A stretch of 63,639 bases of DNA, filler included, from a bacterium (GTDB lineage Bacteria > JBBIVP01), in the NCBI GenBank assembly GCA_037439705.1. It is 4 parts of 4 records of this genome, joined end to end, with 100 filler letters (N's around TTAATTAATTAA, not from the genome) between each part and the next. Parts side by side here need not be neighbours in the genome. Positions count along the whole stretch, not along the records: positions 1 to 16,565 come from JBBIVP010000024.1; 3 more parts are not named here. One strand, written 5' to 3'. The notes under the pieces are model-generated. The model was not told where the DNA came from, did not search any database, and saw only the letters and a list, made by a program, of their open reading frames with translations. Position 1 is the first letter of the stretch. Each line of letters starts with the position of its first letter. A program made the position numbers and the translations under genes. Shown here in pieces: positions 1-14,675 of the stretch.

Positions 1-125
1 AATCTTCTTCACCTGTCAAGTTTTTTTGTAGAAGCACATAGACATTGTTACCAGGGGAAGGGTTAAAATTGGATGAAAGGTTTTATTTTTGTGTAGAGTG
101 CCTTGAAAAAAATTACCTAAAATTA

Positions 126-1082
126 TCAATAAAGATGGCAGGATACCCTTCTTCCGTTCACCTCTTTTAAAGGGGGATAGGAATTTCTACACCTTTCCAT
201 CCTTGAAGGACATCTTGGATGAAAATAACATCCAGATGGTGGAGAAACTGGATTTGGAACATCCCCCTCCAGAATTATCCTCTTTCTTTTCGTCTCGGGC
301 TCTATAGTTGGAACCGCAGATATAAGCGCTTTTGTGTAGGGATGATATGGGTTTTCAAGAACATCCTCTGCTTTTCCAAACTCAAAAACCCTTCCAAGAT
401 ACATCACAAGGACGAAATTTGAAAGCACCCTTATAAGATTAAGGTCATGGGAAATGAAAAGATAGGTAAGCCCAAGTTTTTCTCTCAATTCTATAAAGAG
501 TTTCAGTATCTGTGCTTGAACGGAAAGGTCAAGAGAAGAGGTGGGTTCATCAGCCACAATGAATTCTGGTTCAAGAGCGAGCGCCCTTGCTATACATATC
601 CTCTGCCTCTGCCCACCCGAAAATTCATGAGGGTACCTTTTTACAGAGTCAGCGGATAACCCAACCATTTCAAGAAGTTCTAAAACTCTTTTTTCTCTTT
701 CAAAAGATGCCCCGATTTTGTGTATGATTAATCCCTCTTCAATTATATCTCCAGCCCTCATTCTTGGATTTAATGAAGAAAAGGGGTCCTGAAAAATTAT
801 CTGCATTTTTTTTCTGAATTTTCTCAAATCAGAAGCATTGAGAGATGTAATATCTATACCATCAAAAAATACCCTTCCATCAGTTGGTTCAATAAGTCTT
901 AAAATTGCTTTTCCAAGTGTTGATTTTCCACAACCACTTTCTCCCACCACTCCAAGGACCTCCCCTTTCTTTATAGTGAAAGAAATCCCATCAACTGCTC
1001 TAACCCAATTTTTGACTCTTTTTAAAATACCACCATAAACCGGATAATACTTTTTAAGGGATTCAACCCTTATCTCATTCAT
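126..1082 (-). CDS. oppF: Oligopeptide/dipeptide ABC transporter ATP-binding subunit (OppF/AppF family)
   Basis: Walker A GESGCGKS, Q-loop IFQDP, signature FSGGQRQR, Walker B IVADEP, C-terminal Cys motif (PSGCYFHPRCP...C...VSCH). Confidence 0.93.
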   Translation of the reverse strand: MNEIRVESLKKYYPVYGGILKRVKNWVRAVDGISFTIKKGEVLGVVGESGCGKSTLGKAILRLIEPTDGRVFFDGIDITSLNASDLRKFRKKMQIIFQDPFSSLNPRMRAGDIIEEGLIIHKIGASFEREKRVLELLEMVGLSADSVKRYPHEFSGGQRQRICIARALALEPEFIVADEPTSSLDLSVQAQILKLFIELREKLGLTYLFISHDLNLIRVLSNFVLVMYLGRVFEFGKAEDVLENPYHPYTKALISAVPTIEPETKRKRIILEGDVPNPVSPPSGCYFHPRCPSRMERCRNSYPPLKEVNGRRVSCHLY

Positions 1083-2024
1083 AAAGGTAGCACCTCACCT
1101 CTCTTGAATCCACTTTGAAAATTGGAGGAGGAACTGTGCATTTATTCATCCTATCGGGACATCTGTCAAAAAAGGGGCATGTTGTTATAATGGAAGTCGC
1201 GTCTGGAAGATTTCCCGGTATACTTTCAATCTTTCCCTTTTTTGGAATGGCTTTTATAAGTGCACGGGTGTACGGATGAAGGGGAGATGTAATAATTTCT
1301 GATGTTTTTCCACTTTCCACAGTAAAACCAGCATACATAACATAGATTTTTTCTGTAAGTTCATTAAGAAGACCAAAATTGTGAGAAATAACCATCATTG
1401 AGAGTTTCCATTCTTCACTCAATAGAAGCAAAAGCTCCATGATTTGAGCCTGAATTGTAACATCAAGTGAAGTAGTTGGTTCATCAGCTATTAAAAGGGA
1501 ATTGCTATTGCTACCACTACCCTCTGCTTCATTCCACCGCTCAGTTCGTATGGATATGCCTTCATAATTCTTGAAGGGTCCGGGATACCGACTTTTTTAA
1601 GAAGTTCAATGGCAAATTCTTCGGATTCGGTTTTTGATTTTTTCAAATGAAGTCTTATTGTCTCTATCATCTGCGTGCCTATTGTGAATACAGGATTCAA
1701 AGCCTGTCCAGGCTCCTGAAATACCATTGAAATCTCTTTACCCCTTATTTTTCTTGCCTCACTTTCTTTTAAAGATAAAAGAGCAATATCTCTGAAACGA
1801 ATTGAACCCAAAAAATTCGCTGGCGGAGGAGGAATTAACCTCATAATAGAAAGGGCTGTTACTGTCTTCCCGCACCCTGTCTCACCCGCAACTCCTACCC
1901 TTTCCATTTCAGAAATTTTAATACTTGCATCCCTAACAGCATAGATTTTCCCATAATTGGACTTAATGGTGACAGATAAATTTTCTACAGATAAAAGGCT
2001 ACTTGAGAAATTCCTTGAGTTCAT
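1075..2024 (-). pseudogene. oppD: Oligopeptide ABC transporter ATP-binding subunit OppD/AppD, frameshifted near 1495-1500
   Basis: ORF 1491-2024 has GETGCGKT and LSGGMKQRVVVAIAI, then stops. Another frame resumes LLIADEPTTSLDVTIQAQIMELL and runs into ORF 1075-1440 (HPYT, CPFFDRC). Real lesion or assembly error. Confidence 0.8.
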
Positions 2025-2634
2025 CTTCGGATATGATTTTCTTTTTCACAAGTAAGTTAAAAATGGCATTCACTATTTTTTCAATAGGATATTTCTTTAA
2101 AATGTCATCCTCCTGTTCTGTAAATTTTTCTGTAAGAACCCTGTCCCTTTCAGTAAATACAACCTGGGTTTTGAAATCCTGAAATGCTTCTGAATCCCCT
2201 TCATAGTAATACTTTATTGCCCTTGCAATGGCTGATTCTGTTGAAATAACCGGGCGAACAGAAAGTCTTGATATGAACTCTACCTGTGAAATTGCTTCTA
2301 CATCGGTAGGGTCAGCCATTGCTAAATAAAGAAATTTTTTTCCTCCTTCTTCCTTTATTCCCAAAGGAATAACCGCTAATTTTTTTACCACATCATAAGG
2401 CAGGATTTTTAAAACTCCCGGGGATATTTTGAACTTCTTAAGGTCCACCGCGGGAAGTTTCAGTTGATTTGAAAGTGCTTTGAGAAGCTGTTCCTCGGTT
2501 ATGAAACCAAGTTCAATGAGGTTTTTACCAAGTTTTCCACCCCATTTTTGCTGATATGCAAGGGCTGACCTCAGTTGAAGTTCATCAACAGCCCCCGTTT
2601 TTAATAATATCTCCCCAAGTTTTACTCTCTGCAT
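1999..2634 (-). CDS. Stand-alone MshEN / GspE N-terminal domain protein (putative c-di-GMP receptor)
   Basis: Tandem MshEN motifs KLGEILLKTGAVDELQLRSALAYQ and KLGKNLIELGFITEEQLLKALSNQ, then the T2SSE_N motif LYLAMADP; no ATPase domain. Confidence 0.85.
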   Translation of the reverse strand: MQRVKLGEILLKTGAVDELQLRSALAYQQKWGGKLGKNLIELGFITEEQLLKALSNQLKLPAVDLKKFKISPGVLKILPYDVVKKLAVIPLGIKEEGGKKFLYLAMADPTDVEAISQVEFISRLSVRPVISTESAIARAIKYYYEGDSEAFQDFKTQVVFTERDRVLTEKFTEQEDDILKKYPIEKIVNAIFNLLVKKKIISEDELKEFLK

Positions 2635-2672
2635 AAAATAAATTTTATCATTTTTTATTTTTTATTCAATTT

Positions 2673-4691
2673 TTATGTTTTTGCTCCACTCTTCTCCAAT
2701 AACCCCTTTATTCTCTCCATAAAATCCTCTTTTTCGTATGGAATGAATTTAAGGGATTTGAGGTATTCAACAAAACCCTCAACATCAAGGGTGTTCCATA
2801 TTGCCTCAATCTGAAGGTCATCAGGAAGATAATAAAAAAAATTACCTGCTCCAAGAGCGTCCTGAAGGGTGGAGATATTTCCCCTTATCACCTCCCTCAA
2901 AGCATCCTCTGAAGGTGTAGTTATTATTTCAGGATGCGGGGATAAAGTAATCTTACCATCAATACATCTCGTTTTTATTCCCTTCTCCAGTTCAATACTT
3001 TCTGATAAAAAGCTTCCATATACGGGACCGAAAAGGTGAAATACAATTGCTTCGCGATTTTCTATTGTAAATGGAATTGAATTCATATCTATTTCAGAAA
3101 AAATTTTTTTTCTCAAAACCCCTGATAGTTCATAACTGTAGTTTCCAAATCCAACGCCTTCAAAGAGCTGAACCGTCTCACTTTCCTCACCGCTCCTTAC
3201 ATAGGCTATCCTGTTTTTTTTATCCAGTTCAACGAGATTCCAGGTTTTTCCACCAAGGGAAAAAGATGATGGAACATAAAAAACGCTTCCTATCCTCCTT
3301 CCAGTTTCTGCCTCCACTATTTCATATTCCTTTGAAGAAAGGTCCTTTATGGTGCTGTGTATCTTTCCATATCTTATGAGATTTTCAAGTTTTTCAGAAG
3401 GAAAAAGAATTCCCATCCTCAATTCCTTCAAATAGTTTTTCATTATTGCATGGTCAATAAATCTGCCCACATCCTCCGAAGAATATATCCCTTCAAATAT
3501 CCTGTAAAGGGATTTTCTTGTGGTTCCAATTCTTCTCTTTTGATACAGGTAGGAAAAAACCTGCTGGGGAATGGTGGCAATAGCCTCTCTGTACTTTTTT
3601 TCATAAAACTCTCCTCTCTCTGCACATTCAAAGAAGACCTCAAAAAGAAGCTTTTCCCATTCATTTGTATAAATCCCTATCGCTGTGAGAATATCGTTTC
3701 TCCTCCTGTTTCCCCTTCCTATCCTTTGAAGGAGAGAACTTATTGAGGGAGGAGGTCTGTAAAGAATTATGCAATCAATATCTCCTATATCAATTCCGAG
3801 CTCAAGGGTGGTTGTTGCACATATAATTCCTGCCTTTCCACTTAACATGAAGGATTCTGCTTCCTCACGAATGCTCTTTGAAAGGCTTCCGTGATGAGCC
3901 ACCACATTGTTTGTAAAGGGCGGAATGCTAAATTTTGCTGAAAAGGATTCTGCAAGACTTCTTGAATTAAAAAAGGCAATACATTTCTTGAACTGATTCT
4001 CAGCAAGAAATTTAACAAGAATTGAAGGGGTCTCCGGAGAATCTATAAAAAAGAACCTTTGTATTTCCCTTTTTTTCCTCACAATCACCGTTTCATATTC
4101 TTCCATATATCTTTCTCCGAGTTCCGGACTGTCAACAGTTGCCGAAAGCGCAAACTTCAAAATTCTCCTTCCTTTTAAGAGGAGGTTCAACCTCTTCAAA
4201 AGCACACGAACCATATCTCCTCTTTCACTTCCGTCAATGAGATGAATTTCATCAATTACAACCGCCTTTATCCCTTCAAGTAATTTTGGCGTCCTGGAAA
4301 TTAATGAATCCAGTGATTCGGGAGTTGTTATTAACAAAAAGGGCTTTAATTTTTCTCTGATTTCCTTTCTCTCTCCGGTTCTCCTGCCGAGCGGAAGGTT
4401 CATCATTACTAAAGGGTCAATGAGTCGTCTTGCCACATCATTAACGAGTGCCCTTGTAGGTGAGATGTATAAAACCAGTATTGAATCCCTGTATTCATCA
4501 CAAAATAGTTCTGAGAGGGGTGCAATAACAGATTCTGTTTTCCCAGTGGCTGCTGGAGATATTATGAGAAGGTTTTTTCTTTCAAGAACAAGAGGAATTG
4601 TTTTTTCCTGAACTTCTGTCAGTCTTCCAAACCTACTAAAAAAAGGATGCCATGCCCTCTTTAACCTCTTCTTTATTTCCTCTGTTTCCAT
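2673..4691 (-). CDS. Lhr-like (BrxHI-like) SF2 DEAD/DEAH-box helicase
   Basis: Q motif LTEVQ, SPAATGKTE, YISPTRAL, TTPESL, DEIH, SAT, HHGSLS, ATTTLELGIDIG, QRIGRGNRR; 672 aa, Lhr core only. Confidence 0.9.
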   Translation of the reverse strand: METEEIKKRLKRAWHPFFSRFGRLTEVQEKTIPLVLERKNLLIISPAATGKTESVIAPLSELFCDEYRDSILVLYISPTRALVNDVARRLIDPLVMMNLPLGRRTGERKEIREKLKPFLLITTPESLDSLISRTPKLLEGIKAVVIDEIHLIDGSERGDMVRVLLKRLNLLLKGRRILKFALSATVDSPELGERYMEEYETVIVRKKREIQRFFFIDSPETPSILVKFLAENQFKKCIAFFNSRSLAESFSAKFSIPPFTNNVVAHHGSLSKSIREEAESFMLSGKAGIICATTTLELGIDIGDIDCIILYRPPPSISSLLQRIGRGNRRRNDILTAIGIYTNEWEKLLFEVFFECAERGEFYEKKYREAIATIPQQVFSYLYQKRRIGTTRKSLYRIFEGIYSSEDVGRFIDHAIMKNYLKELRMGILFPSEKLENLIRYGKIHSTIKDLSSKEYEIVEAETGRRIGSVFYVPSSFSLGGKTWNLVELDKKNRIAYVRSGEESETVQLFEGVGFGNYSYELSGVLRKKIFSEIDMNSIPFTIENREAIVFHLFGPVYGSFLSESIELEKGIKTRCIDGKITLSPHPEIITTPSEDALREVIRGNISTLQDALGAGNFFYYLPDDLQIEAIWNTLDVEGFVEYLKSLKFIPYEKEDFMERIKGLLEKSGAKT

Positions 4692-5977
4692 CTTTTTTCA
4701 TCAAGAAAATCTACACAGTATTTTATGTAGTTTCTTATACCATTCCCCCTGTGCAGAAGTATTTCTCTAATGAGTTTTTGCNNNNNNNNNNTATATTCGT
4801 TTAATTTATGTATATCTGAAACAACATCTATTTTGAAATCAGGATACGCTGAGGAATATATGCTGAGAAGCGTTTGAACGAGCTTTGTTATGTCTGTTGT
4901 TGAAAATGGAGAAAGAGAAATGAAAGTATCCACAATATCTTTAAGTCTTCTGTACGGATTCCATTCGTAAAGAGGGGTTGTTGTAATAAGGACGAGAATT
5001 GATGGATTCCCATAAATGTAAGGAACTGGTCTTATCTTTGTGTGAAGCTCATCATCCCTTATCTGTATCAATTCCTTTTTCTTCTGAGCAGTGTAGATTA
5101 ATCCTTCAAAGAATTTCCATCCCCTCTCAAGATATATCCTCTGCTCAATCCTTGAGATTGTCTCAGCCTCATCAAGAAGTATAAGAAGCCCCTTCTTTCC
5201 TATACCCCTTAAGACACAACTTATTCCGCAGAGAAGATTACAGTAAAAATCAACAGCAGTGGAAACATCATAAAGTGCTGGAATATCCTGTCCACCTTTT
5301 ATCCTGTGAACGGAAGAAGGATGAAGTGCATATTCCTTTGTTGACTCACCTTCCGCCCATTGCCAGAGAACATCCTTCTCTTTTTCCGGAGTTTTCTTGA
5401 GTTTTCTTAAAAAAGGTCCAAAAAATACATGGTCGTTGAGAATTTTTTTCTCAATAGCAGAAAACATCAAATCCCTAAACCCCTTTTCAATACCGTCCTC
5501 TAAATAAACGAGACTGTTAATCAGTTCTCTATAAACCCTTTTTGGACGATGTGGCGGGACTTCCTCGGGGTCAAGTGAACAGGTCGCTACCCCTATTTCC
5601 ATATCAATTGCAAGCCTTTTTATGTATTCAAGAATGTGTGTTTTGCCAGCCCCGTATTCTCCCTCTATAAGGATCGCCCCGCCCTCTCCCCTTTCAAGAA
5701 GAAAAAGTTTCTCTTTTATCTCGTTTATTACTCCATCCCTGCAAAATGTAAATTTTTTTACATCTACTGAAGGAACAATTCCCAATCTGAATGCTTCTAC
5801 CATCCTTCTCGCATGAAAAGAGTCCACTTTCTCTATGGAAGGGGTGGTTATTATTCTTATCCTGCTCGCCGATACCCAGATAGATAATCCGTCTTTGAAA
5901 CGAACCTTTACCTGAATTCCTCCCCATCTTTCATCCTCTATAACCCCCTCACCGAATACAGGATGGAGAACGAGCAT
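4673..5977 (-). CDS. BrxD/DUF2791-like P-loop ATPase with N-terminal Tudor-like motif (contains 10-N gap)
   Basis: EAFRLGIVP motif typical of DUF2791, Walker A GEYGAGKT, Walker B ILLDEAE; N-terminus VLHPVFGEGVI. Confidence 0.78.
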   Translation of the reverse strand: MLVLHPVFGEGVIEDERWGGIQVKVRFKDGLSIWVSASRIRIITTPSIEKVDSFHARRMVEAFRLGIVPSVDVKKFTFCRDGVINEIKEKLFLLERGEGGAILIEGEYGAGKTHILEYIKRLAIDMEIGVATCSLDPEEVPPHRPKRVYRELINSLVYLEDGIEKGFRDLMFSAIEKKILNDHVFFGPFLRKLKKTPEKEKDVLWQWAEGESTKEYALHPSSVHRIKGGQDIPALYDVSTAVDFYCNLLCGISCVLRGIGKKGLLILLDEAETISRIEQRIYLERGWKFFEGLIYTAQKKKELIQIRDDELHTKIRPVPYIYGNPSILVLITTTPLYEWNPYRRLKDIVDTFISLSPFSTTDITKLVQTLLSIYSSAYPDFKIDVVSDIHKLNEYXXXXQKLIREILLHRGNGIRNYIKYCVDFLDEKRWKQRK

Positions 5978-5978
5978 C

Positions 5979-7251
5979 TCAATACTCCTCCTCTTCCGAA
6001 GATTCCTCTGTCTTTTCAGCGAGCAATTTCATAGCATCTATTACTGCTTCCTTCGCCTCTTTCTTTGTAATTGGAACCTCCAGATTTTTCCTCATCCTTT
6101 GAAAGACTTCTATAGCAGATATAACGAAAATTCTTCTATAACTAACATCAAATTGAAATTCAAGTGCACTCTCTGTAAGATAACTTGTTACTTCCTTCAG
6201 CCTGTTTCTGTCAAATTTGAAATCGTATGCAATCTCAAATATCTCAGCTAGTTTGTCTCCGAGGGATTTAAGAAAATCTTCTGGCGGAATCCCGATATTC
6301 TCAAGGTTTATCTTCACACCAAGCGGATTACTTGCTGTAAAGGAACTCTTCAACCTCTGTTTNNNNNNNNNNNNNNNNNNNNNNNNNNNNNNNNNGGAGA
6401 AGATTTTCATCTGGAATCGCATAAAAAATCATCGTGCCTGGAAGTCTCGCATTTCCACATTCATCCACTAATTGCCTGAGATTATCAAGGGCTTTCCTTT
6501 TATCCCTTGCGCTGTATATGCTCAATCCCCTCTCAGCCTCATCAAAAAGAAGAATTATACCCGAAAATCCCATCTGGACTATTGACTGTATGAGTGACCT
6601 CATCATTCTGAAGGCTGTTGTCTTTTCAATCCTCTCAGAAATACAGAATTTTCCTCGCCATTCAACCGGTATATCTTCCCCCTTCAGCCATTGAATTGCC
6701 ATCTGAAAACCTTCCTCATCGTTTTGAACAAGGGAATTAAGAGCTGACCTCAATGCATTCCCAAAACTTGAACTCTCACAACCTCTTATTGAGTTTATAA
6801 CCTCCCTCGCCACATCAGGATTTTCGTTTGACTTTTCCAGAATTTTCTTTATCCACTTTCTCAAAAATGGTTCTATTCCCCTTTCCCAGGGACTCATCAT
6901 TTCTGCGGAACTCATTGGATAGGAAATTCCTGTCACCACTGCCCTGTAAACAAGTTCAAGCTTATCAAAAGGGCATTCTGCTGGATTGAGACTTACATAA
7001 GATACAACATAGTTTTCCTTCCACCCCATGTCCCTGATGGAATATAAAAAATGGGTCTTACCTCCTCCATAGCTTCCTGTGACAATTTTGAAAGAAGAAA
7101 GACCCATTTTGAGGATTCCTTTTAAATACTCATCATCAATTGCTGAAAGAATTGGCTCAAGTCCTATGCTGAAATATTCCAATCCAAACTCAGGTGGTGT
7201 TCCCGAACTTCCAAGTTTATGAATAATTGCCTTTGCAAGAAGTTTATCCAT
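5979..7251 (-). CDS. Second BrxD/DUF2791-like P-loop ATPase (split into two ORFs by N gap 6363-6395)
   Basis: GTPPEFG, Walker A GSYGGGKTHFL, PFDKLELVY, Walker B LLFDEAE, LDNLRQLVD. The frame after the gap continues as ORF 5979-6422 (KQRL...NPLGVKINLE). Confidence 0.8.
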
Positions 7252-8044
7252 TTATTCCCTCAATAAAAATGTAGGAATAATATGTCCCGTTACCCTCTTC
7301 ATCATCAGGAATCCAAATAGCAGTGCTCTTATCAGTGGTCGCATCAAAGGTAGCGACGCTCAATTTTATCTGAGAAACCCCTTCTTTTTTCAGCCTGTAA
7401 ATGTCATAACTGAAAAGATACCTGGGATACTCCATAAAGTTCTTCCTTGTTGGATTATCTCTAAATGCCTTCGGCTGTTGAAGAATGGTCATCTCCCGTA
7501 AAATCTCGGTAAGTAAAACCTTCTCCTTTACTTCATGAAGAACTCTTTTGTAAGCAGTAAGTAGGTCTTGCAGGAATTTTTTTGTGTCAAATTTTCTTTT
7601 CTTAAGGAGGTCATTCACTTTCTTTATAGCAGAATAAACGCTTTCAGGAGAAAGGGGAAGGTTTGAAACTATGAGTTCGGCTTCGTTTCCCCAATAAAGG
7701 TTCACTGAACCAGTTTCAAAAGAGATTTTTATTGTGTAAAAGCCAGCTCGAAGAACCGGATATTGCCCTTTTAAAACGAGGTTTTCACTCTGAAGAAGTT
7801 TTGAAAGTTCATTGCCAAAATTTGCTCTCCACACCATTTCCTCTGAAGATATTTTTTCCTCCTCATTTTTAAGCCAGTCTTCAAGTCCCTTTACCTTAGT
7901 TCCCTTTTCAAGAATTGATTTTATGTCCCTTAAAATTTTTTTTCTCTGAAAGGGTGAAGCAGTCTTTGAATAGAGCATAAGATTTTTTTTAATTATGTAT
8001 AAATTATCAATCTGCGCTTTTATGTCTTTCAATATCTCTTCCAT
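7244..8044 (-). CDS. Hypothetical protein, first gene of the ATPase/helicase operon
   Basis: Open frame overlapping the next gene by 8 bp. ATG at 8044 preferred over 8152 because a TTGAAA-17-TATCAT promoter ends 7 nt upstream and 8101-8152 overlaps an IS relic. Confidence 0.75.
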   Translation of the reverse strand: MEEILKDIKAQIDNLYIIKKNLMLYSKTASPFQRKKILRDIKSILEKGTKVKGLEDWLKNEEEKISSEEMVWRANFGNELSKLLQSENLVLKGQYPVLRAGFYTIKISFETGSVNLYWGNEAELIVSNLPLSPESVYSAIKKVNDLLKKRKFDTKKFLQDLLTAYKRVLHEVKEKVLLTEILREMTILQQPKAFRDNPTRKNFMEYPRYLFSYDIYRLKKEGVSQIKLSVATFDATTDKSTAIWIPDDEEGNGTYYSYIFIEGING

Positions 8045-8051
8045 CCTTTCA

Positions 8052-8080
8052 ATGATAAATCCTTCAAGTCCTTTTTTCAA
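8052..8080 (-). promoter_or_regulatory. Putative sigma70 promoter of the ATPase/helicase operon
   Basis: Minus strand TTGAAA (8080-8075), 17 nt spacer, TATCAT (8057-8052), 7 nt before ATG 8044. Confidence 0.55.
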
Positions 8081-8100
8081 CTTTTGAATTTCAGAAAATT

Positions 8101-8276
8101 TTACAGGAGGAACCAATACGAAGTTTATTGATAAAGAACCACTATTTAACAAAAAACTTACAAAGTATTTGCTCTTCTACAACACAGAAAGATTTCACAA
8201 ATCCCTTGGTCTAAAAAACCCCTTAAATTTTCTCATTCAAACTCATAAAATGTCGCCTAAGTATATAACTTATACA
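8101..8276 (+). mobile_element. Degenerate 3' fragment of an IS481-like (integrase core) transposase with its right end
   Basis: Translation LQEE.../FNKKLTKYLLFYNTERFHKSLGLKNPLNFL...MSPKYITYT matches the YN-x-x-R-P-H-x-S-L-x-x-x-x-P end of rve-type transposases. ACA at 8274-8276 fits the TGT...ACA termini of IS481. Confidence 0.65.
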
Positions 8277-8281
8277 ATTTC

Positions 8282-8310
8282 TTGCAATTATTTAAAAAAT
8301 GAAGTAAAAT
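8282..8310 (+). promoter_or_regulatory. Putative sigma70 promoter of the TPR-aroQ-acc operon
   Basis: TTGCAA (8282-8287), 17 nt, TAAAAT (8305-8310); ATG at 8320. Confidence 0.55.
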
Positions 8311-8319
8311 AAATAAGTT

Positions 8320-9525
8320 ATGGGAATAGATGAAAAAACTCTCTTAAGGGAGATTGAGGTACACAAAAAAGCGCTTAAAAAGGACCCCGCCTCAAAGGAA
8401 TTTTTACCACTTGCAGAAGCGTTGAGAAAGTTGAAAAGATATGATGAGGCAATTGATGTCTGCAAAAAGGGTCTTGAAAAAAATCCGAAATATATAACAG
8501 GCTATATAGCCCTTATAAAAATCTACCTTGATGCAGGAAAAATTGAAAACGCTCTTGAAGAGGCTGAAAAGTCTTTAAAACTTGCTCCAGATAATACCAC
8601 TCTGTTGAGGTTGAAGGGAGAAACAGAAATAAAACTTGGAAGGAAGGAATTAGCCCTTAAAACCCTTGAAAGATGCTATGAATTATCGCCCGATGAACCA
8701 GGTCTTGAAACCCTGATAAAAAACTTGAAAGAAGAGATTTACAAATCTGAAACGAAAACCGAAGAAGTTAAAGAAGAAACTCTTAAAACAGAGGAGGAGA
8801 AAATAGAAGAACCACCCAAATCAGTTGAAATGGAAGAATTTGAAGAAAAAATTAGAGAAACCGAAGAGGTAGTAGAAAAAGAGTATGAAGAGAGGGAGGA
8901 AATAAAAGAAAAACTCGAGGAAATGCCTCCAGAAATTGAAGGGGAAGAGGTTATTTCTGAAGAACCCAAATCAGTTGAAGCAGAAGAATTTGAAGAAAAA
9001 ATAAGAAAAACCGAAGAAGTAATAGAAACAGAAGAAGTTGGGCTGACAGAAGGAATACATGAAGAACCAGAAACACTTCCTGAAACTGAACAGAAAGAAT
9101 TAGAATCCGAAGAGGTCATTGAAATAGAAGAAACAGGAATTGAACTGACTGAAGAAACACATGAAGAAACAAAACCTTTAGAAAAAGAAGTACAACATGT
9201 AGAAATAAAGTCTCCAGAAATTCGTTCCACTCGTCCCATTCAGGAACCTCCCATAGTCATAAAAGAAATTAAAAAAAGATTTGACATCCAGGAGGCTATT
9301 GGTTTCGCTCTTGCTATGGAAAAAGAAGGAAATCTGAAATATGCCATCCAGCTCTGGATGGATGTTTTGAAGCACGAACCCTCAAATATAGAAGCAAAAA
9401 GAAAAATTGCCGAATTGAGAAGGAAAATCTGGAAGGAAAAAGAAGAGGAGAAAAAGAAGGAAATTCCCATGGATAACTTGAGATTGCTTGCAAAATGGAT
9501 AAAAAAGATAAAAGAAGGAGGCTGA
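8320..9525 (+). CDS. Tetratricopeptide repeat protein with acidic repetitive linker
   Basis: N-terminal TPR helices (FLPLAEALRK...GLEKNPKY), Glu-rich central region, C-terminal TPR. Confidence 0.85.
   Translation: MGIDEKTLLREIEVHKKALKKDPASKEFLPLAEALRKLKRYDEAIDVCKKGLEKNPKYITGYIALIKIYLDAGKIENALEEAEKSLKLAPDNTTLLRLKGETEIKLGRKELALKTLERCYELSPDEPGLETLIKNLKEEIYKSETKTEEVKEETLKTEEEKIEEPPKSVEMEEFEEKIRETEEVVEKEYEEREEIKEKLEEMPPEIEGEEVISEEPKSVEAEEFEEKIRKTEEVIETEEVGLTEGIHEEPETLPETEQKELESEEVIEIEETGIELTEETHEETKPLEKEVQHVEIKSPEIRSTRPIQEPPIVIKEIKKRFDIQEAIGFALAMEKEGNLKYAIQLWMDVLKHEPSNIEAKRKIAELRRKIWKEKEEEKKKEIPMDNLRLLAKWIKKIKEGG
8815..9168 (+). repeat. Intragenic imperfect duplications in the TPR protein linker
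   Basis: CCCAAATCAGTTGAA...GAAGAATTTGAAGAAAAAAT at 8815 and 8965 (PKSVE-x-EEFEEKIR-x-TEEV twice); second pair LTE-x-x-HEE near 9022-9066 and 9124-9168. Confidence 0.8.
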
Positions 9526-9526
9526 T

Positions 9527-9880
9527 GTGTTTAAAGAGATTCTTGAAGAGATAGTAAAGAGATGCGAAGGAATAAAAGGGATTACTCTTATGGGAATTGA
9601 TGGAATAGGAATTGAAAATGTAGTAGGGGACGAGTCTGTAGATATAGAAAAGATGGGAATTGAAATGAGCGGATTCATAAGAAAGGTAACAGAATTTTCA
9701 TCTTACATAAACTCTGGAGACATAAATGAATTCCACCTTTTCTTCTCAGGCTACACAATCCTTATAAAAATGATAGGAACAGGATATTTCCTGATGGCAG
9801 TTCTTTCCCCGGAAGGGAACTTTGGAAAAGCTAGGTACTACCTCAAAAGAGGAGCGGAACTCGTAGAAAAGGAATTATGA
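9527..9880 (+). CDS. Roadblock/LC7 (MglB-like) domain protein
   Basis: LMGIDGIGIE and LSPEGNFGKARYYL motifs; conserved position upstream of aroQ in deltaproteobacteria. Confidence 0.85.
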   Translation: MFKEILEEIVKRCEGIKGITLMGIDGIGIENVVGDESVDIEKMGIEMSGFIRKVTEFSSYINSGDINEFHLFFSGYTILIKMIGTGYFLMAVLSPEGNFGKARYYLKRGAELVEKEL

Positions 9881-10302
9881 AAAAAATACTCGTCATAAAC
9901 GGTCCAAATCTTAACATGCTCGGTAAAAGGGAAAAGGAGCATTATGGAAACTTCACACTGAAAGACCTTGAAGAAAATGTAAAAAAGTATGCAGAGGAAA
10001 GAAAAGTAAAGGTGGACTTTTTCCAGAGCAATTCGGAAGGTGAAATAGTATCAAAAATTCAATCCGTCCTTGGTAAATACGATGGAATAATCATAAATCC
10101 AGGCGCTTACACTCATACAAGCATTGCCATCAGAGATGCACTTTTAGCAACAGGAATTCCATTCATTGAAGTTCACATTTCAAACATATTTGCCAGGGAA
10201 GAGTTCAGAAGGAGGTCCTATCTGTCAGATATTGCAAAAGGAGTGATTTCAGGTCTCGGCATGAAAGGGTATATCCTTGCCCTCCAGGCATTCCTTGACT
10301 GA
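9877..10302 (+). CDS. aroQ: Type II 3-dehydroquinate dehydratase
   Basis: INGPNLNMLGKRE, QSNSEG, INPGAYTHTS, EVHISN. Confidence 0.97.
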   Translation: MKKILVINGPNLNMLGKREKEHYGNFTLKDLEENVKKYAEERKVKVDFFQSNSEGEIVSKIQSVLGKYDGIIINPGAYTHTSIAIRDALLATGIPFIEVHISNIFAREEFRRRSYLSDIAKGVISGLGMKGYILALQAFLD

Positions 10303-10310
10303 AAATTGAG

Positions 10311-11393
10311 ATGAAAAATAAATCCCGGAAAGAAAAACGCAAAGAAGCTCTTGCTGAATTATTAAATGACGATTCATGTCTCTTCATAAAAAATCCGGCA
10401 AACATCCGATATCTCACGGGTTTCACAGGAACGAACGGGTTAATTTATATGGAGAAGGATACTGCCTTATTAATCTCGGACCCGAGATACGGAGAAAGAT
10501 GTTATAAGGAAGTAAAAAATTTTGAAGTATTAATCACTGCAAACCCGTTTCATGAGATTCTGAATAGATGTGCTTCAAAAAAAACAATTTTTGTTGAGTA
10601 TCCCGATTTATCAATCTCAGAGTTAACCAGGATAAAGGAACTTTCAAAAGATATTGAAGTGAAGGATGTCTCCCATATCATTATGAAATTTCGGGCACAG
10701 AAAGATGAGGAGGAAATAAAATGGATAAAGGAATCATCAAAAATAAACAAAAGGGCTTTTGAGAAATTTCTTGATTTTATAATAAAAAATATCGGGAAAA
10801 TTACTGAAATGGATGCTGCTGTGGAGCTTGAATACATTATGAGAAAAGAAGGCTCCGAAAGACCCTATTTTCCCGTAATAGTGGCATCAGGAGAAAGAGC
10901 ATCAGTTCCGCACGCAAAGCCATCAGACAATAAAATAAATTACGGAAATGGAATCCTTATAGATTTTGGAAGTGTAAAAGAAGGATATTCAACGGATGAA
11001 ACTGTATCCATTTTTGCAGGAAAAGTTGATGAAGAATATAGAAGGGTCTGGGAAATTCTGAGGGATGCTAAAAAGATAGCTATTGAATCCATAAAAATTG
11101 GTGAGAACATGGCATCGCCTGAAAAAAGGGCAAGGGAATTTTTATCAAAATTTGGTCTGGAGAAATTCTTCGTTCACTCCATAGGACACGGAATAGGACT
11201 TGAAGTTCACGAATATCCGAAACTTTCAAACTCATCTAATGAGATATTTGAAGAGGGTATGATTTTCACCATTGAGCCAGGGATATATATAAATGGAAAA
11301 TTTGGAATAAGACTTGAAGATGTGGTTTACCTCTCTTCCCACGGAATTGAGGTATTAACAGAAATAAAAAAGGAGGAAATTCTCTGTGTCTGA
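10311..11393 (+). CDS. Xaa-Pro aminopeptidase/dipeptidase (M24B)
   Basis: Creatinase-N [40 protein letters not shown]. Confidence 0.93.
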
Positions 11394-11796
11394 AAAAATA
11401 AAACTTCTTGAGGAATTAATAAAAATGGCTGAAAGGTTTGACCTCCTTGAACTTGAATTTCAAGAAGGAGACACAAGGTTAAGAATAAAAAGGAGAACGA
11501 TAAGGGAAAGGGAAGAAAAAAAGAAAAAGGAGCTTCCGGCTGGAACCCGTGCAATAGTTTCTCCTTTTGTTGGAACATTTTACAGAGCTCCATCTCCGGG
11601 TGCCCCTCCTTTTGTAAATGTGGGGGACAGGATACAAAAAGGACAGGTTTTATGCATAATTGAATCAATGAAAATTATGAACGAAGTTGAATCGGATGTA
11701 GATGGTAAAATTCTTTCAATTCTTGTTGAAGATGGAGAAACGGTGGAGTACGGTCAGGAACTTTTTATCATTCAATTAGAAATAGAGAATGTTTGA
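11386..11796 (+). CDS. accB: Acetyl-CoA carboxylase biotin carboxyl carrier protein
   Basis: [13 protein letters not shown] and biotinylation motif ESMKIMNE. Confidence 0.96.
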
Positions 11797-13126
11797 AAAG
11801 GTTCTGGTAGCGAACAGAGGAGAAATAGCATTAAGAATAATAAGAACCCTGAAGGAAATGGGTATAAAATCAGTGGCGGTTTATTCAACTGCAGACAGAT
11901 ATTCACCTCATGTATTGATGGCTGATGAAAAGGTCTGTATAGGTCCACCGCCTCCAGCAAAGAGCTACATGAACATCCCATCCATTATAAGTGCTGCGGA
12001 AATAACCGAGGCAGATGCGATTCATCCCGGTTATGGATTTCTTTCTGAAAATCCTGACTTCGCAAGGATTGTGGAGGAATGCGGAATAAAATTTATAGGT
12101 GCTACACCTGAAACAATGAGAATTGCTGGAGATAAAATCGCATCAAAAATTATGGCAAAAAGTCTGGGTATCCCTGTTCCTCCCGGAAGCGAGGAGGTTC
12201 AGGATATGAAGGAACTGAAAAGAGCTGTTGAAGTTTTAGGACTTCCTGTCATTTTGAAGGCCTCATTAGGAGGGGGCGGAAGAGGTATGAGGAGCATCTA
12301 CATGGAAGAAGAAATGGAATCCGCATTTGAAATGGCAATGAAAGAAGCAGAAACTTCGTTTAACAGCAAGAGGATTTATGTGGAAAAATTTTTTGAAAAT
12401 GTAAAACATGCGGAAGTCCAGATAATAGGGGATGGAAATGGAAATGTGGTTCATTTTGGAACAAGGAATTGCTCAATCCAGAGGAGACATCAGAAGGTTA
12501 TTGAAGAGGCCCCCTTTCTCGGACCTCCTGAAATAGTTAAAAAAATAGAAAACGATGCGGTTAAACTAACTTCCCATCTGAAGTACAGAGGTGCCGGAAC
12601 AGTGGAGTTTCTGTTTGTCCCTCCTGACAGGTATTATTTCATTGAAATAAATGCAAGAATACAGGTTGAACATCCTGTATCAGAGGAAATAACGGGATTT
12701 GACCTTATAAAGGAACAGATACGAACTGTGGCTGATGGAAAACTTTACCTTAAACAAAAAGAGATAAAAATCTATGGTCACAGTATAGAGGTAAGAATAA
12801 ATGCTGAAGATCCGGAAACATTTCATCCGGCAACCGGCGTAATAAAGAAAATCCACCTTCCGGGAGGACCTGGCGTAAGAATTGATTCCGGGGTAATAGA
12901 AGGGAATGAAATCACCCCGAATTATGACCCTCTCCTTTTGAAACTAATTGTTTGTGGAAGGGATAGAAACGAAGCAATTTTAAGGCTCAGAAGAACTCTT
13001 TCAGAGATTGTGATTGAAGGAGTAAAGACAAATATCCCTCTTCTTAAAAGGATAATTGAGGATGGAGACTTTCTCAAAGGAAATGTTACCACAAAATTTA
13101 TGAAAAAGTATGAAAGAATTGGATAG
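11789..13126 (+). CDS. accC: Biotin carboxylase
   Basis: [44 protein letters not shown]. Confidence 0.97.
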
Positions 13127-13709
13127 AAGGATATTCGTTTTTCCTTTCTCAGTTAGAAGTGCAAAATTCAACATGGAAATGGACATAAAGTTTTTTAACG
13201 ATTTTTTCAAAGAAAGAACTGGCTTGAGAATTTATGGCTGGAGTGAAAGATGCATAACTTTTGGAAGAAATCAAAAAATCCCTCAAACCAGCCTTCCATC
13301 AGTAAAAAGACCCACAGGAGGTGGAATCGTTGTCCATTCCACTGATATATCTTTCAGTTTCTTCATAAACCCCTCCTCTCCTCTGTGGCGTCCTTCAGTT
13401 CATTCAACATACCTTGAAATATCTGAACTTATAAAAGAATCCCTGAGAAGAAAAGGATATCAAGTTGATTATCCTCGTGAAATTCACCATAATAGGGAAA
13501 GAAGGGAGATGTGTTTTGAAAGGGCTGAACCCCACGAACTCGTTCTTGATGGAAGGAAGGTAATGGGATGTGCACTTCTCAAAAATGGAAAGAGATACCT
13601 TGCCCAGGGAACAATTTTTCTTTCTGTATCAGGGGAAAAACTTGAAAAGGTTTTAACCAATGTATTGAAGGAAAAGGGATTTGAGATACATATTTTAACA
13701 GAAACATGA
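13110..13709 (+). CDS. Lipoate-protein ligase/octanoyltransferase family protein (LplA/LipM-like)
   Basis: LRIYGW, RPTGGGIVVH and GRKVMG motifs. Confidence 0.8.
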   Translation: MKELDRRIFVFPFSVRSAKFNMEMDIKFFNDFFKERTGLRIYGWSERCITFGRNQKIPQTSLPSVKRPTGGGIVVHSTDISFSFFINPSSPLWRPSVHSTYLEISELIKESLRRKGYQVDYPREIHHNRERREMCFERAEPHELVLDGRKVMGCALLKNGKRYLAQGTIFLSVSGEKLEKVLTNVLKEKGFEIHILTET

Positions 13710-14650
13710 AAACAAGAATAACTGAACTTTTCGGAATAAAGTATCCAATAATCCAGGGAGCAATGGCATGGGTCTCATTCCCTCCACTGGTGGCTGCTGT
13801 GTCAGAAGCGGGTGGCCTCGGGATTCTCGGCGGAACCATCTTTGACCCTCCAACAATGAAGGAAAACATTCGGAAGGTGAAAGAGCTCACAAACAAGCCA
13901 TTCGGCGTAAACATACTTGCAAAATCTCCCATAGTTGACGACCTTCTTGATGTAATTATTGAAGAAGAAGTGGAAGTTGTAACCTACGGACTCGGAAATC
14001 CAAAGCACATAATAGAAAGGTTAAAACCCACAGGAATAAAATCAATGCCTGTTGTTCCAACAGTAAAAGCCGCAGTTAGAGCAGAAGAGGATGGAGCAGA
14101 TGCAGTTGTAGTTTCTGGAATGGAAGGTGGCGGACATGTCGGAAGCCTCACCACTTTCATCCTCATTCCACAGGTGAGAGACAGGGTAAAAATTCCTGTA
14201 GTTGCTGCAGGAGGAATAGGTGATGGAAGGGGGCTTGCTGCTGCTCTGATCCTTGGAGCCGACGGAGTTCAGGTAGGAACAAGATTTATATGCACAAAGG
14301 AATGCCCTGCTCATGAAAATGCAAAAAGAGCAATTATTTCTGCCAGTGCAGAAGATACATTGGTAACCGGAAATATTACAGGACTCCCTGTAAGGGCATT
14401 GAGAAACAGAATGACAGAAACATTTGCAAAAATGGAAGAAATGAAAAGACCTGCGTGGGAGATGGCTCTTTTTGGTTCAGGAAAGATGTATAAGGCATTT
14501 GTGGAAGGAGATGTAGAAGATGGCTCTGTTATGGCTGGGCAAATATGCGGAATGATAAACGACATTCCATCGGTAAAGGAACTAATTGAAAGAATGGTAA
14601 AAGAATCTGAAGAAGCTCTTGAAGGTATAAAGGGTATATTTGCAAAGTAA
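13706..14650 (+). CDS. fabK: FabK-type enoyl-ACP reductase / nitronate monooxygenase family flavoprotein
   Basis: YPIIQGAMAW, SEAGGLG, PFGVN, EGGGH, AAGGIGDGRG, GTRF, MAGQ; located in the acc operon. Confidence 0.85.
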   Translation: MKTRITELFGIKYPIIQGAMAWVSFPPLVAAVSEAGGLGILGGTIFDPPTMKENIRKVKELTNKPFGVNILAKSPIVDDLLDVIIEEEVEVVTYGLGNPKHIIERLKPTGIKSMPVVPTVKAAVRAEEDGADAVVVSGMEGGGHVGSLTTFILIPQVRDRVKIPVVAAGGIGDGRGLAAALILGADGVQVGTRFICTKECPAHENAKRAIISASAEDTLVTGNITGLPVRALRNRMTETFAKMEEMKRPAWEMALFGSGKMYKAFVEGDVEDGSVMAGQICGMINDIPSVKELIERMVKESEEALEGIKGIFAK

Positions 14651-14668
14651 ATATTTTTGAAGTAAAAT
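14640..14668 (+). promoter_or_regulatory. Putative sigma70 promoter, leaderless
   Basis: TTGCAA (14640-14645), 17 nt, TAAAAT (14663-14668), 7 nt before ATG 14676. Confidence 0.55.
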
Positions 14669-14675
14669 TTTAAAA

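Follow-up and report, generated by a model that had tools for sequence, protein, structure and literature searches.

A candidate third relative of the Shango and type 2 BREX ATPase-helicase pairs: a conserved four-gene cassette

Sequence comparison of a four-gene locus in a bacterial draft genome identified it as a copy of an apparently widespread, ancient and unnamed cassette, a probable relative of the SngB-SngC and BrxD-BrxHI pairs. We lean, with some caution, towards reading this cassette as a Shango-like nucleic-acid surveillance and defense machine. The window (the whole stretch of DNA that was analyzed, 63,639 nucleotides) contains one contig at positions 1 to 16565; the remainder consists of other contigs joined by N linkers. 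The genome is a draft assembly of 239 contigs and is 88% complete.

Organization of the locus

The following features were assigned in the window.

7244..8044, minus strand: leader gene, 266 aa (ORF call, ATG at 8044)
5979..7251, minus strand: second gene, ATPase "b", ORC/Cdc6-type AAA+, BrxD-equivalent, with a 33-N run inside
4673..5977, minus strand: third gene, ATPase "a", 434 aa, divergent BrxD-like paralogue
5843..5977, minus strand: Tudor-like (SH3-fold) domain of ATPase "a", N-terminal residues 1 to ~45, "HPVFGEG..."
2673..4691, minus strand: SF2 helicase, 672 aa, SngC/BrxHI/Lhr-like group, "long" form
8045..8319, no strand: divergent intergenic region 5' of the leader gene, ~276 bp, expected promoter place

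ORF calling confirmed the arrangement described in an earlier note on this DNA, namely, four same-strand genes joined by an 8-bp overlap (7244-7251), a 1-bp gap (5978) and a 19-bp overlap (4673-4691). The housekeeping surroundings that it described were also seen in the flanking-gene annotation of the window's own contig. The leader ATG is preceded by GAAAGG, and an alternative TTG start at 8152 would give a protein of 302 aa. Two other claims of that note did not hold. An IS relic had been placed beside the operon, but a domain search detected no transposase domain in any of the contig ORFs scanned. A promoter of its own had also been proposed. Promoter-like sites occur in the intergenic region, at 8287-8260 and 8080-8052, but the total of 17 sigma-70-like sites is no excess over chance (14.8 +/- 3.4 in shuffles).

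The second gene (1273 nt) does not form one open frame in the window sequence. ORF calling splits it into 6328-7251 and 5979-6422, with a change of frame across the 33-N run (6363-6395). Intact relatives have a single ORF of ~420 aa that matches both halves. The stretch at the N run comprises 34 nt in the window versus 11 residues in the relatives; therefore, either the length of the N run is not true or the gene has a real +1 frameshift. The intact Walker A and B motifs that the earlier note gave for both ATPases were confirmed, but an uninterrupted second ATPase gene is not supported by the window's record.

Conservation of the four-gene order

Whether the gene order is conserved had been named as a check on the earlier reading, and the order proved to be kept far beyond chance. 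The GTDB-genome set comprised 35 loci, of which 34 had the leader and 28 had at least 4.7 kb downstream. All four genes were present in order in 18 of these 28 loci, the leader with both ATPases in 9 and the leader alone in 1. The metagenome set (80 loci) included 29 loci with at least 4.7 kb downstream, and all 29 showed the four genes in order. Where the helicase was unlinked, all 5 genomes tested had a full-length orthologue (44 to 49% identity) at another place; for the leader-only locus, the ATPase pair was located on another contig (1/1).

The leader family and its predicted contact with the ATPase

The leader, previously listed as an unknown protein, belongs to a real family of ~270 to 290 aa that lacks annotation. 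Searches of Pfam, PADLOC and NCBIfam yielded no match (in Pfam and PADLOC, this includes TerB), and the ESM Atlas neighbors were all labeled "hypothetical protein." A profile search collected 908 clusters at E <= 1e-3 from bacteria and Asgard archaea, and some archaeal forms have an extra Rho_N/SAP domain. A tblastn search with the leader against 72,556 plasmids gave no match at E <= 1e-3. In the AF2 model (pLDDT 88.6), a helical bundle at the N terminus precedes a central beta/alpha domain, and the C-terminal part, in which the motif VATFDATT is situated, resembles a winged helix. Foldseek revealed no match to the PDB at E <= 1e-3. The best VIA comparison reached Z 8.6 (residues 68-148), and residues 148-266 gave Z 7.0/6.6 against the ORC winged-helix.

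The leader-ATPase complex was predicted with the orthologues of locus L009, using a 52-row alignment for each protein. The score was 0.45 (runs of 0.45, 0.47 and 0.42), and the best of three controls scored 0.00. At least 90% of the contacts agreed between the runs, with a partner pLDDT of at least 84. Of 157 solved complexes, 116 reached the score mark, as did 2 of 215 mismatched pairs; just 18 of the 157 solved complexes, and both of the passing mismatches, reached it at 0.60 or under. These counts hold roughly only, because our own alignments were used. The prediction weakly suggests that the leader contacts the ATPase.

The ATPase pair

Both ATPases match the Pfam family BrxC_BrxD (PF10923), at 5.9e-35 for "b" and 3.3e-24 for "a." The best PADLOC models were BrxD (109.9 bits for "b" and 74.2 bits for "a") and SngB (66.4 and 48.6 bits, respectively). 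The NCBIfam BrxD model gave 112.9 bits ("b") and 74 bits ("a") and its equivalog cutoff of 350 was not reached. Translation revealed a Walker A motif (GSYGGGKTH; GEYGAGKTH) and a Walker B motif (LLFDEAE; LLLDEAE) in each protein, as had been reported. These motifs are invariant in 52 sequences of ATPase "b" and in 22 sequences of ATPase "a." The duplication into divergent paralogues, also noted before, is ancient, and both copies have kept Walker A and B.

In two of three cassette branches, paralogue "a" carries an N-terminal UvrD-type Tudor domain. A comparison of the orthologues of the window's protein showed the domain conserved throughout, and its HMM matches 32 of 32 and 49 of 52 orthologues. 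Residues 1-40 have a pLDDT above 90 in the AF2 model. Comparison of the Tudor profile with PDB sequences placed three UvrD C-terminal domains on top (E 0.026 to 0.059). Foldseek likewise ranked Tudor domains first (7egs_B and 7egt_B, rmsd 1.9 A), and VIA gave Z 5.0 (5dma_A) and 4.9 (7egt_D), with KOW and SH3 domains scoring equally. The domain is probably Tudor-like and nearest to that of UvrD/PcrA, with the reservation that the E-values are marginal and that VIA does not tell Tudor apart from KOW or SH3.

PMC8318588 describes the UvrD/PcrA C-terminal Tudor domain as binding RNA polymerase (RNAP) and UvrB, and gives the PcrA "helicase interaction motif" as [VIL]-D-x-x-T-G-E-[VIL]-[VILT]. This motif, its looser form included, is absent from all ORFs of at least 100 aa in the window's genome and from the 1382-aa rpoB frame. 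The position differs as well: the domain is C-terminal on an SF1 helicase in UvrD/PcrA, whereas here it is N-terminal on an AAA+ ATPase.

The helicase

The SF2 motifs GKT, DEIH, SAT and QRIGRGNRR, which had been claimed as complete, are all present in the translated helicase. Pfam assigned DEAD (3.2e-27) and Helicase_C (5.9e-17), and the top PADLOC models were SngC (216.6 bits), BrxHI (206 bits) and DpdJ (96.6 bits). In the helicase tree, the window's copy falls in the long clade. It has a C-terminal extension of ~150 aa without a recognized family, and no Pfam match was found for residues 340-672 (the C-terminal ~330 residues). An orthologue of the short clade gave a weak WH_Lhr match (E 0.0038).

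The best sequence matches in the PDB were 5v9x_A and 7lhl_A (~1e-29), with the SF2 core as the shared part. The depositors name 5v9x and 7lhl only "ATP-dependent DNA helicase"; we take them to be mycobacterial Lhr, a repair-associated helicase. The window's helicase differs from Lhr in that the NCBIfam Lhr-type models scored 170 and 167 bits, against cutoffs of 849 and 850, and in that the best-scoring matched stretch covers query residues 11-197 only. According to Tuck et al. 2024 (PMC12278908), SngC, BrxHI, DruE and DpdJ belong to a helicase clade "defined by antiphage immune functions."

Comparison with BREX and Shango

The 88%-complete genome yielded neither PglZ nor TerB, nor a third PF10923 gene that could be a BrxC. 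This agrees with the earlier view of an autonomous module. As also stated before, no nuclease or other effector was recognized. The cassette was rejected as BREX on the lack of PglZ and as Shango on the lack of TerB.

Shango comprises SngA (TerB-like protein), SngB (ATPase) and SngC (DEAD/DEAH helicase), and Johnson et al. (bioRxiv 10.1101/2022.11.11.516204) show its anti-phage activity. Like the cassette, Shango starts with a small nonenzymatic gene, has a DUF2791/BrxD-like ATPase and then an Lhr-like SF2 helicase behind it, and lacks a recognizable nuclease. In contrast, Shango has TerB, which neither the leader nor the genome has, and one ATPase, while the cassette has two paralogues, one of them with the Tudor domain. 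Shango is reportedly also a subject of Millman et al. 2022.

In type 2 BREX/Pgl, the BrxD-BrxHI pair shares with the cassette the tight linkage of an ORC/Cdc6-type AAA+ ATPase to a Ski2/Lhr-like helicase. A 2026 NAR paper (PMC12839542) describes BrxD as a standalone ATPase that lacks additional domains and proposes that it loads or activates the helicase; in the cassette, a leader and the Tudor-bearing paralogue are added. The cassette HMMs scored 331 to 340 bits (helicase) and 143 to 157 bits (ATPase) on distant plasmid-borne members. The outsiders scored lower, with 224 bits for BrxHI, 119 for BrxD, and 197 and 95 for a SngC-like helicase and a SngB-like ATPase from a Klebsiella plasmid.

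Genomic context of the cassette branches

Two cassette branches are found in defense islands or on plasmids, near BREX, type I RM, Hma and AbiE. At locus L093, a type I MTase (619 bits) and an S subunit lie directly upstream, and PDC-S68 (1200 bits) lies directly downstream. Nearby genes encode HmaA (737 bits) and a PIN protein at L112, BrxA and BrxB at L110, three PDC-S01 proteins at L080, PDC-S27 at L072, SIR2_2 at L051, a phage portal at L101 and HepT at L115. A distant cassette is situated on Desulfomonile tiedjei plasmid pDESTI.01, adjoining AbiE and ParA. Another lies on a conjugative Aulosira plasmid, right after an "alkaline phosphatase domain" protein and an ATPase-helicase pair, which we read as PglZ and BrxD-BrxHI. 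The leaders of both plasmid cassettes score ~30 bits against the family HMM.

In the window's branch, the surrounding genes have housekeeping roles (tRNA synthetases, FBPase, GlmS, GyrA, glycosyltransferases). PADLOC models matched 7 of the 130 proteins that flank the cassette in 12 loci (E <= 1e-10), and all 7 matches are to generic domains (ABC ATPase, FtsX-like permease, cNMP-binding domain, OmpA, TPR, cyclase). The defense-island context proposed as a check was present in the other branches (islands, plasmids) but absent from the window's own. Between species, the ATPases are 77 to 85% identical and the neighboring tRNA synthetase 75 to 82%, and cassette divergence in this branch tracks that of the flanking genes; the branch looks chromosomal and vertically inherited. 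Of 272 genomes of the WOR-3 phylum, 126 carry the leader, always as a single copy, and within one block of 116 neighboring genomes 107 have it, which is unusual for a defense system. The cassette was found in 2 of 93 Caldisericota genomes.

Proposed function

The analysis shows which genes the cassette contains, how far they are conserved, which domains they encode and in what genomic contexts they lie; from this we infer the complex, loading step, target and phenotype of the cassette as follows. The leader, which has no enzymatic signature, would be an adaptor or sensor on nucleic acid and would bind the BrxD-like ORC/Cdc6-type ATPase "b." The latter may form a hetero-oligomer with paralogue "a," in which both subunits would hydrolyze ATP. 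In line with the earlier note and with the proposal for BrxD-BrxHI in PMC12839542, this hetero-oligomer would load or switch on the Lhr/Ski2-like helicase on target DNA or an RNA:DNA structure. The Tudor domain of ATPase "a" may act as a docking module, as UvrD/PcrA use it for RNA polymerase or UvrB, and tether the machine to a partner.

Defense is indicated by the SngC/BrxHI/DpdJ-like helicase and by the sister branches in defense islands and on plasmids. Points against it are the window's branch without defense context, the lack of a nuclease-type effector and the negative plasmid search with the leader. To the main rival we give a clearly smaller chance: the cassette of the window's branch (long helicase, WOR-3-type) would be domesticated and endogenous, serving genome maintenance rather than immunity. 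Its heteromeric loader, of the ORC/Cdc6-like kind, would dock through the UvrD-type Tudor domain to a partner such as RNA polymerase or UvrB and bring the Lhr-like helicase to R-loops, to stalled transcription complexes or to damaged DNA. Housekeeping flanks (in all 12 loci examined, as well as on the window's contig), the always single-copy leader of the WOR-3 block, the divergence parallel to the flanks and the retention of all parts in broken-up operons fit this explanation, as do the resemblance of the Tudor domain to that of UvrD/PcrA and the presumed Lhr relatives of the helicase. It is countered by the sister branches, by the closeness of the helicase to the SngC/BrxHI/DpdJ group and by the missing PcrA-type docking motif. 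Also against it, the cassette is rare in Caldisericota, and the window's genome has no same-phylum relatives among the compared genomes; this scattered occurrence suggests occasional transfer.

It is improbable that the window's cassette is decaying, with a real frameshift in the second ATPase and a module that no longer works. The frames that differ across the N run favor decay, and the neighboring oligopeptide ABC ATPase likewise appears split into two ORFs. However, none of the remaining three genes is shortened or lacks a motif, both halves of the second gene are well conserved, N runs in such a draft assembly need not keep their true length, and the 10-N run in the third gene (4782-4791) keeps the frame. 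Least credible of all is that the cassette is a remnant or accessory of type 2 BREX/Pgl with its core elsewhere, or a Shango system with TerB diverged beyond recognition. The matches of the ATPases to BrxD and of the helicase to BrxHI and SngC, and the putative type 2 BREX end adjoining the Aulosira cassette, speak for it. Yet the Aulosira plasmid has both a putative BrxD-BrxHI pair and the cassette, and the two are therefore distinct; the presence of two ATPases where Shango has one, the NCBIfam BrxD scores far under the cutoff, the leader without TerB, and an 88%-complete genome with only two PF10923 genes and no PglZ or TerB also argue against this reading.

The surveillance and defense reading remains our preferred one. 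At the level of the family, defense against phages or plasmids is the most likely role, and the cassette would stand as a third relative beside the ATPase-helicase pairs of Shango and type 2 BREX.

Gene organization of the cassette and its contig

Analysis of the open reading frames on contig C24 (window 1-16565), one contig of a 2.03-Mb, 239-contig, 88%-complete genome, confirmed the four minus-strand genes that an earlier note had described:

7244-8044, minus strand: leader, 266 aa
5979-7251, minus strand: second gene, ATPase 'b', 1273 nt
4673-5977, minus strand: third gene, ATPase 'a', 434 aa
2673-4691, minus strand: helicase, 672 aa

The junctions were also borne out (8-bp overlap, 1-bp gap and 19-bp overlap). 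Inspection of the translations verified Walker A and Walker B in both ATPases and the helicase motifs GKT, DEIH, SAT and QRIGRGNRR. The second gene departs from the note in having no single frame in the window. A run of 33 N at 6363-6395 lies between an N-terminal part (6328-7251) and a C-terminal part in another frame (5979-6422). This interruption could mean that the window's copy of the cassette is broken, which is quite unlikely. In relatives, the second gene is a single ORF of approximately 420 aa that spans both parts, and a stretch of 34 nt in the window corresponds to 11 residues in the relatives. Either the N run is of untrue length or the frameshift is real. Two further claims, an adjacent IS relic and a promoter of the operon's own, were not supported. 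A transposase domain was absent from all scanned ORFs of the contig, and promoter-like sites numbered 17, compared to 14.8 +/- 3.4 in shuffled sequence, which is chance level; the scan for promoters and terminators gave nothing beyond chance.

The rest of the contig consists of housekeeping genes, encoding oligopeptide ABC ATPases, an MshEN-domain protein, a TPR protein, dehydroquinase, an M24 peptidase, BCCP, biotin carboxylase, a lipoate ligase-like protein, an NMO-family protein and a response regulator. One oligopeptide-type ABC ATPase looks split on the minus strand (1075-1440 and 1491-2024), with the ABC_tran part in one ORF and the oligo_HPY C-terminal part in the next; a frameshift, a pseudogene or faulty assembly could account for the split. 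At 126-1082 there is an intact ABC ATPase paralogue. At 14676-16565, a long coiled-coil with weak crescentin-like matches comes after a response-regulator receiver domain and runs off the contig end. The window as a whole is made up of several contigs joined by paired 44-N linkers (16566-16665, 32368-32467 and 48011-48110), so that the cassette has physical linkage to 1-16565 alone; a further run of 59 N is present at 24080-24138.

Conservation of the four-gene cassette

The predicted conservation of the four-gene order was upheld in two sets of loci. The first comprised 35 loci from GTDB species genomes, mostly of "candidate division WOR-3" with a few of Caldisericota, Gemmatimonadota or unnamed lineages. 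The leader was present in 34 of the 35, and at least 4.7 kb of downstream sequence was available in 28. Among these 28 loci, 18 carry all four genes in order, 9 have the leader and the two ATPases with housekeeping genes next, and 1 carries the leader alone. Where the helicase is unlinked, a full-length orthologue (44-49% identity) was found elsewhere in five of five genomes, twice adjoining glmS; in the leader-only genome, the ATPase pair is located on a separate contig. The second set, obtained with an archaeal-type leader as the query, comprised 80 metagenome loci, and all 29 with enough downstream sequence have the four genes in order. Their helicases are shorter (525-550 aa). In one locus, L115, a single 667-aa ORF at 9965-11965 is hit by two models, the helicase HMM (388 bits) and that of ATPase 'a' (177 bits); gene fusion or faulty assembly could explain it.

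In a quick maximum-likelihood tree, 47 helicases fell into a long clade of 20 sequences, the window/WOR-3 branch, and a short clade of 27, the metagenome branch (SH-aLRT 99). The window helicase falls in the long clade, adjoining WOR-3 sequences on a long branch. A more distant third branch was detected in cultured bacteria, where it is plasmid-borne (Desulfomonile tiedjei pDESTI.01 and Aulosira laxa plasmid 3). The order there is a 279-aa hypothetical protein, two proteins annotated as "BREX system ATP-binding domain" or hypothetical, and a DEAD/DEAH helicase. The plasmid leaders score 26-31 bits on the family HMMs. The first plasmid ATPase scores as 'b' (143-157 bits versus 57-72 as 'a') and the second as 'a' (68-83 bits versus 32-68 as 'b'); therefore, the ATPase duplication is older than the three branches. 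The plasmid helicases reach 331-340 bits, versus 224 for a helicase read as BrxHI and 197 for an SngC-like one. By sequence comparison, the window carries an unnamed four-gene cassette, with homologues of all four proteins in order.

Relationship to BREX, Shango and Lhr

Both ATPases matched PF10923 (BrxC_BrxD) in Pfam, with 5.9e-35 and 3.3e-24, and in PADLOC both scored higher on BrxD than on SngB (SngB 66.4 and 48.6 bits). In NCBIfam they remained far under the 350-bit cut-off of the BrxD equivalog NF033438, with 112.9 bits for 'b', of which just the N-terminal 307 aa were scored, and 74.1 bits for 'a'. Full-length orthologues, scored against Pfam only, gave 154.9 and 81.5 bits on PF10923. 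Walker A and B are kept in both paralogues throughout. Matches of an ATPase 'b' profile to DNA polymerase I among PDB sequences (E of approximately 0.01) were judged spurious. BrxD and SngB are nearer to paralogue 'b'.

For the helicase, PADLOC gave SngC as the best match (216.6 bits), followed by BrxHI (206 bits) and DpdJ (96.6 bits). Its top solved sequence relatives are 5v9x and 7lhl, which we take to be mycobacterial Lhr. The helicase falls short of a full Lhr-core score, being below the Lhr-type NCBIfam cut-offs (PRK13767, 170 versus 849 bits; DEXH_lig_assoc, 167.3 versus 850 bits), and no Pfam family was assigned to its final 330 residues.

The cassette would work like Shango and the BrxD-BrxHI pair of type 2 BREX/Pgl, yet by the components that define them it belongs to neither. 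PglX, PglW and BrxC/PglY were not detected on the contig. PglZ (PF08665) gave no match on the 16.5-kb contig or in the genome, where its absence is not proven because the genome is 88% complete. The two cassette genes are the only PF10923 copies in the genome, with no BrxC-like copy seen. Shango starts with a TerB gene (sngA) and has one ATPase, whereas the cassette has two ATPases and no TerB; TerB (PF05099) was absent from the same 88%-complete genome. Like Shango, the cassette has no recognisable effector. On the Klebsiella pneumoniae plasmid locus L126, a 708-aa open frame missing from the plasmid gene table (1835-3965) lies upstream of an SngB/SngC-like pair and may be the SngA of a Shango system.

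No name for the cassette was found in the open-access literature searched; the supplements of two papers (PMC12839542 and 10.1101/2025.09.30.679545) may list it. It is absent from PADLOC-DB 2.0.0 (2023), and the NCBI annotation of the plasmid copies is limited to hypothetical or generic proteins. The locus is real, conserved and unnamed, and is kin to known ATPase-helicase systems; the cassette forms a separate family alongside Shango and the BrxD-BrxHI pair.

A putative Tudor domain in ATPase 'a'

The N-terminal 45 or so residues of ATPase 'a' (HPVFGEG...), which the earlier note did not mention, are conserved in every orthologue. A domain HMM matched 32 of 32 and 49 of 52 orthologues in the two locus sets and gave no match in the distant plasmid-borne cassettes. 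Searching PDB sequences with the domain profile placed three UvrD C-terminal domains at the top (6yi2, E 0.026; 7egs_B, E 0.031; 7egt_B, E 0.059) and a fourth at rank 5. Pfam analysis of the N-terminal 60-73 residues of six orthologues returned only CarD_TRCF_RID, in one of the six (E 0.14). In the AF2 model, residues 1-40 have a pLDDT above 90. Foldseek ranked Tudor domains first (E 0.025-0.05, prob 1.00). Two of them, 7egs_B and 7egt_B, superpose on the N-terminus at an rmsd of 1.9 A; these are UvrD C-terminal domains on the RNA polymerase lobe and on UvrB, respectively. Structure comparison with VIA gave Z values of 5-6, at which Tudor, KOW and SH3 barrels are inseparable. The models thus predict a Tudor (SH3-like barrel) fold for the N-terminus of ATPase 'a'.

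According to PMC8318588, the Tudor domain of PcrA/UvrD binds RNA polymerase and UvrB via a beta-hairpin motif. This helicase interaction motif, [VIL]-D-x-x-T-G-E-[VIL]-[VILT], had no match in genome ORFs of at least 100 aa, even in a looser form, and was missing from the 1382-aa rpoB frame; uvrB is only partly assembled in this genome. The cassette proteins contain no strict motif. Docking of the Tudor domain on a PcrA-type motif inside the cassette was rejected: a loosened form is matched only by the window helicase (VEAETGRRI) and by 2 of 64 locus helicases. Because the PcrA motif is absent from the cassette, the genome ORFs and rpoB, the claim is limited to a putative docking domain of the UvrD type.

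The leader protein

The leader had no match in Pfam, PADLOC (both at E<=0.01) or NCBIfam. A word-indexed search returned 13 proteins, including the window's own, and the closest relatives are metagenomic, with 73-77% identity. Searching 1.84 billion representatives with a leader profile revealed 908 clusters at E<=1e-3, of which 603 remained at E<=1e-10 and 282 at E<=1e-30; the protein length is 270-290 aa in almost every case. ESM Atlas neighbours were unnamed clusters only. The AF2 model is confident (pLDDT 88.6), and Foldseek against the PDB gave zero matches at E<=1e-3. VIA comparison with 48,161 chains yielded middling Z values (8.6 for residues 68-148), generic helical bundles only for residues 1-69, and a weak resemblance of residues 148-266 to ORC winged-helix domains (Z 7.0 and 6.6). 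From these models, no known fold can be claimed for the leader.

Long forms of the leader (clusters P0097, P0119, P0131 and P0152) have an extra N-terminal Rho_N/SAP-like domain in all four examined, with matches of E 1.4e-5 to 6e-4, one of which passes the Pfam cut-off. A source is named for one of the four clusters, P0097, which comprises Asgard-archaeal MAG records. The bacterial leader motif ATFDAT is ATRAYT in the long forms; thus, its Asp is not a conserved catalytic residue, and for this reason the leader is read as a putative non-enzymatic adaptor.

A complex of the leader with ATPase 'b' was predicted for the orthologues from one locus, L009, in view of the interruption of 'b' in the window. 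The prediction received weak support (score 0.45; best of three controls, 0.00). Of 157 solved complexes, 116 pass the score mark, as do 2 of 215 mismatched pairs; those that pass with a score of not more than 0.60 include only 18 of the 157 solved complexes but both of the mismatches. These benchmark counts hold only roughly because our own alignments were used. At least 90% of contacts are shared between the runs, with a partner pLDDT of at least 84.

Genomic context and inheritance

PADLOC analysis of 86 flanking proteins from 14 metagenome loci revealed that the neighbours of the cassette are often immune or mobile genes. Locus L112 carries HmaA (737 bits) and a PIN gene, and L110 carries BrxA and BrxB. 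PDC-S01 genes were found in L080 and PDC-S27 in L072; other loci have SIR2_2, a phage portal gene, HepT or a nucleotidyltransferase. In L093, a type I methyltransferase (619 bits) and a specificity subunit are positioned upstream and PDC-S68 (1200 bits) downstream, an arrangement that raises the question of whether the cassette serves a methylation-based system. In the same locus (590-12993), no restriction subunit was seen with the methyltransferase, and PDC-S68 is a 1179-aa RecD-like helicase. On pDESTI.01, AbiE and ParA are near the cassette. On the conjugative Aulosira laxa plasmid 3 (locus L128, 1-9554), the cassette lies directly downstream of a putative type 2 BREX end, where an "alkaline phosphatase domain" protein, an ATP/GTP-binding protein and a DEAD/DEAH helicase follow one another. 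We read these as PglZ-like, BrxD and BrxHI; so arranged, both ATPase-helicase modules would stand in tandem on one conjugative plasmid.

Among 130 flanking proteins from 12 GTDB loci, the set of the window's branch, PADLOC gave seven matches at E<=1e-10, all to generic domains, and those neighbours that bear a name include tRNA synthetases, FBPase, glycosyltransferases, GyrA and similar proteins. In the WOR-3 phylum, the leader was present in 126 of 272 genomes, almost always once. It was found in 107 of the 116 genomes of one adjacent run (G152-G266 and G044) and in 19 of the 156 others; similar sizes and match scores in neighbouring genomes suggest that the order of the listing follows relatedness. 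In Caldisericota, 2 of 93 genomes have the leader. The window genome is the sole member of its phylum among the GTDB species genomes compared; the leader was found in none of 40 comparison genomes, all related at the "same domain" level only. A search of sequencing runs listed no RNA data set and a single DNA run with a small share (0.06), which bears on neither expression nor habitat. In species that share flanks, ATPase identities of 77-85% go with 75-82% for the neighbouring tRNA synthetase, and 65-78% with 40-53% for the neighbouring glycosyltransferase; the leader, at 40-74% identity in the same comparison, is the fastest-evolving part of the cassette. On this evidence, the window's branch looks to have been inherited vertically over a long time under strong constraint.

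The cassette is best read as a defence or surveillance system, an interpretation that is somewhat favoured, with immune and mobile neighbours in the metagenome branch and on the plasmids. A domesticated maintenance role for the window's branch, with its housekeeping neighbours and apparent vertical descent, is less likely but a serious rival. A more specific proposal for the same branch is unlikely: it would be a former immune module turned core chromosomal machine, in which the loader docks on the transcription or excision-repair apparatus and loads an Lhr-like helicase. The loader would then be heteromeric and ORC/Cdc6-like, consisting of a BrxD-like ATPase, a Tudor-tagged paralogue and a new adaptor. 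If true, bacteria and Asgard archaea would possess a counterpart to origin-type helicase loading, used in genome maintenance.

Proposed mechanism and significance

The four proteins are co-inherited, with the domain identities and in the contexts described here. In PMC12839542, BrxD is classed among the ORC/Cdc6-type AAA+ ATPases, with a proposed role in loading or activating BrxHI. Extending this proposal, the leader would act as an adaptor, and 'b' and 'a' would form a hetero-oligomer in which each of the two subunit types hydrolyses ATP. The Tudor domain would tether the assembly to a partner, and the helicase would be the output.

To our knowledge, the working mechanism of Shango and of the BrxD-BrxHI pair of type 2 BREX is not known. 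The cassette adds a third relative that is widespread and whose parts are more informative, namely a second ATPase paralogue, a putative Tudor docking domain and an adaptor family of approximately 900 sequence clusters that is named in no database and reaches Asgard archaea. Defence candidates are many; this one stands out by its informative parts, its distribution over two domains of life and its testable copies in cultured organisms. The mobile defence-island form and the stable chromosomal form offer a natural comparison of whether such loader modules serve immunity, genome maintenance or both, and the plasmid copies in the cultured bacteria Desulfomonile tiedjei and Aulosira laxa make this question testable at the bench.
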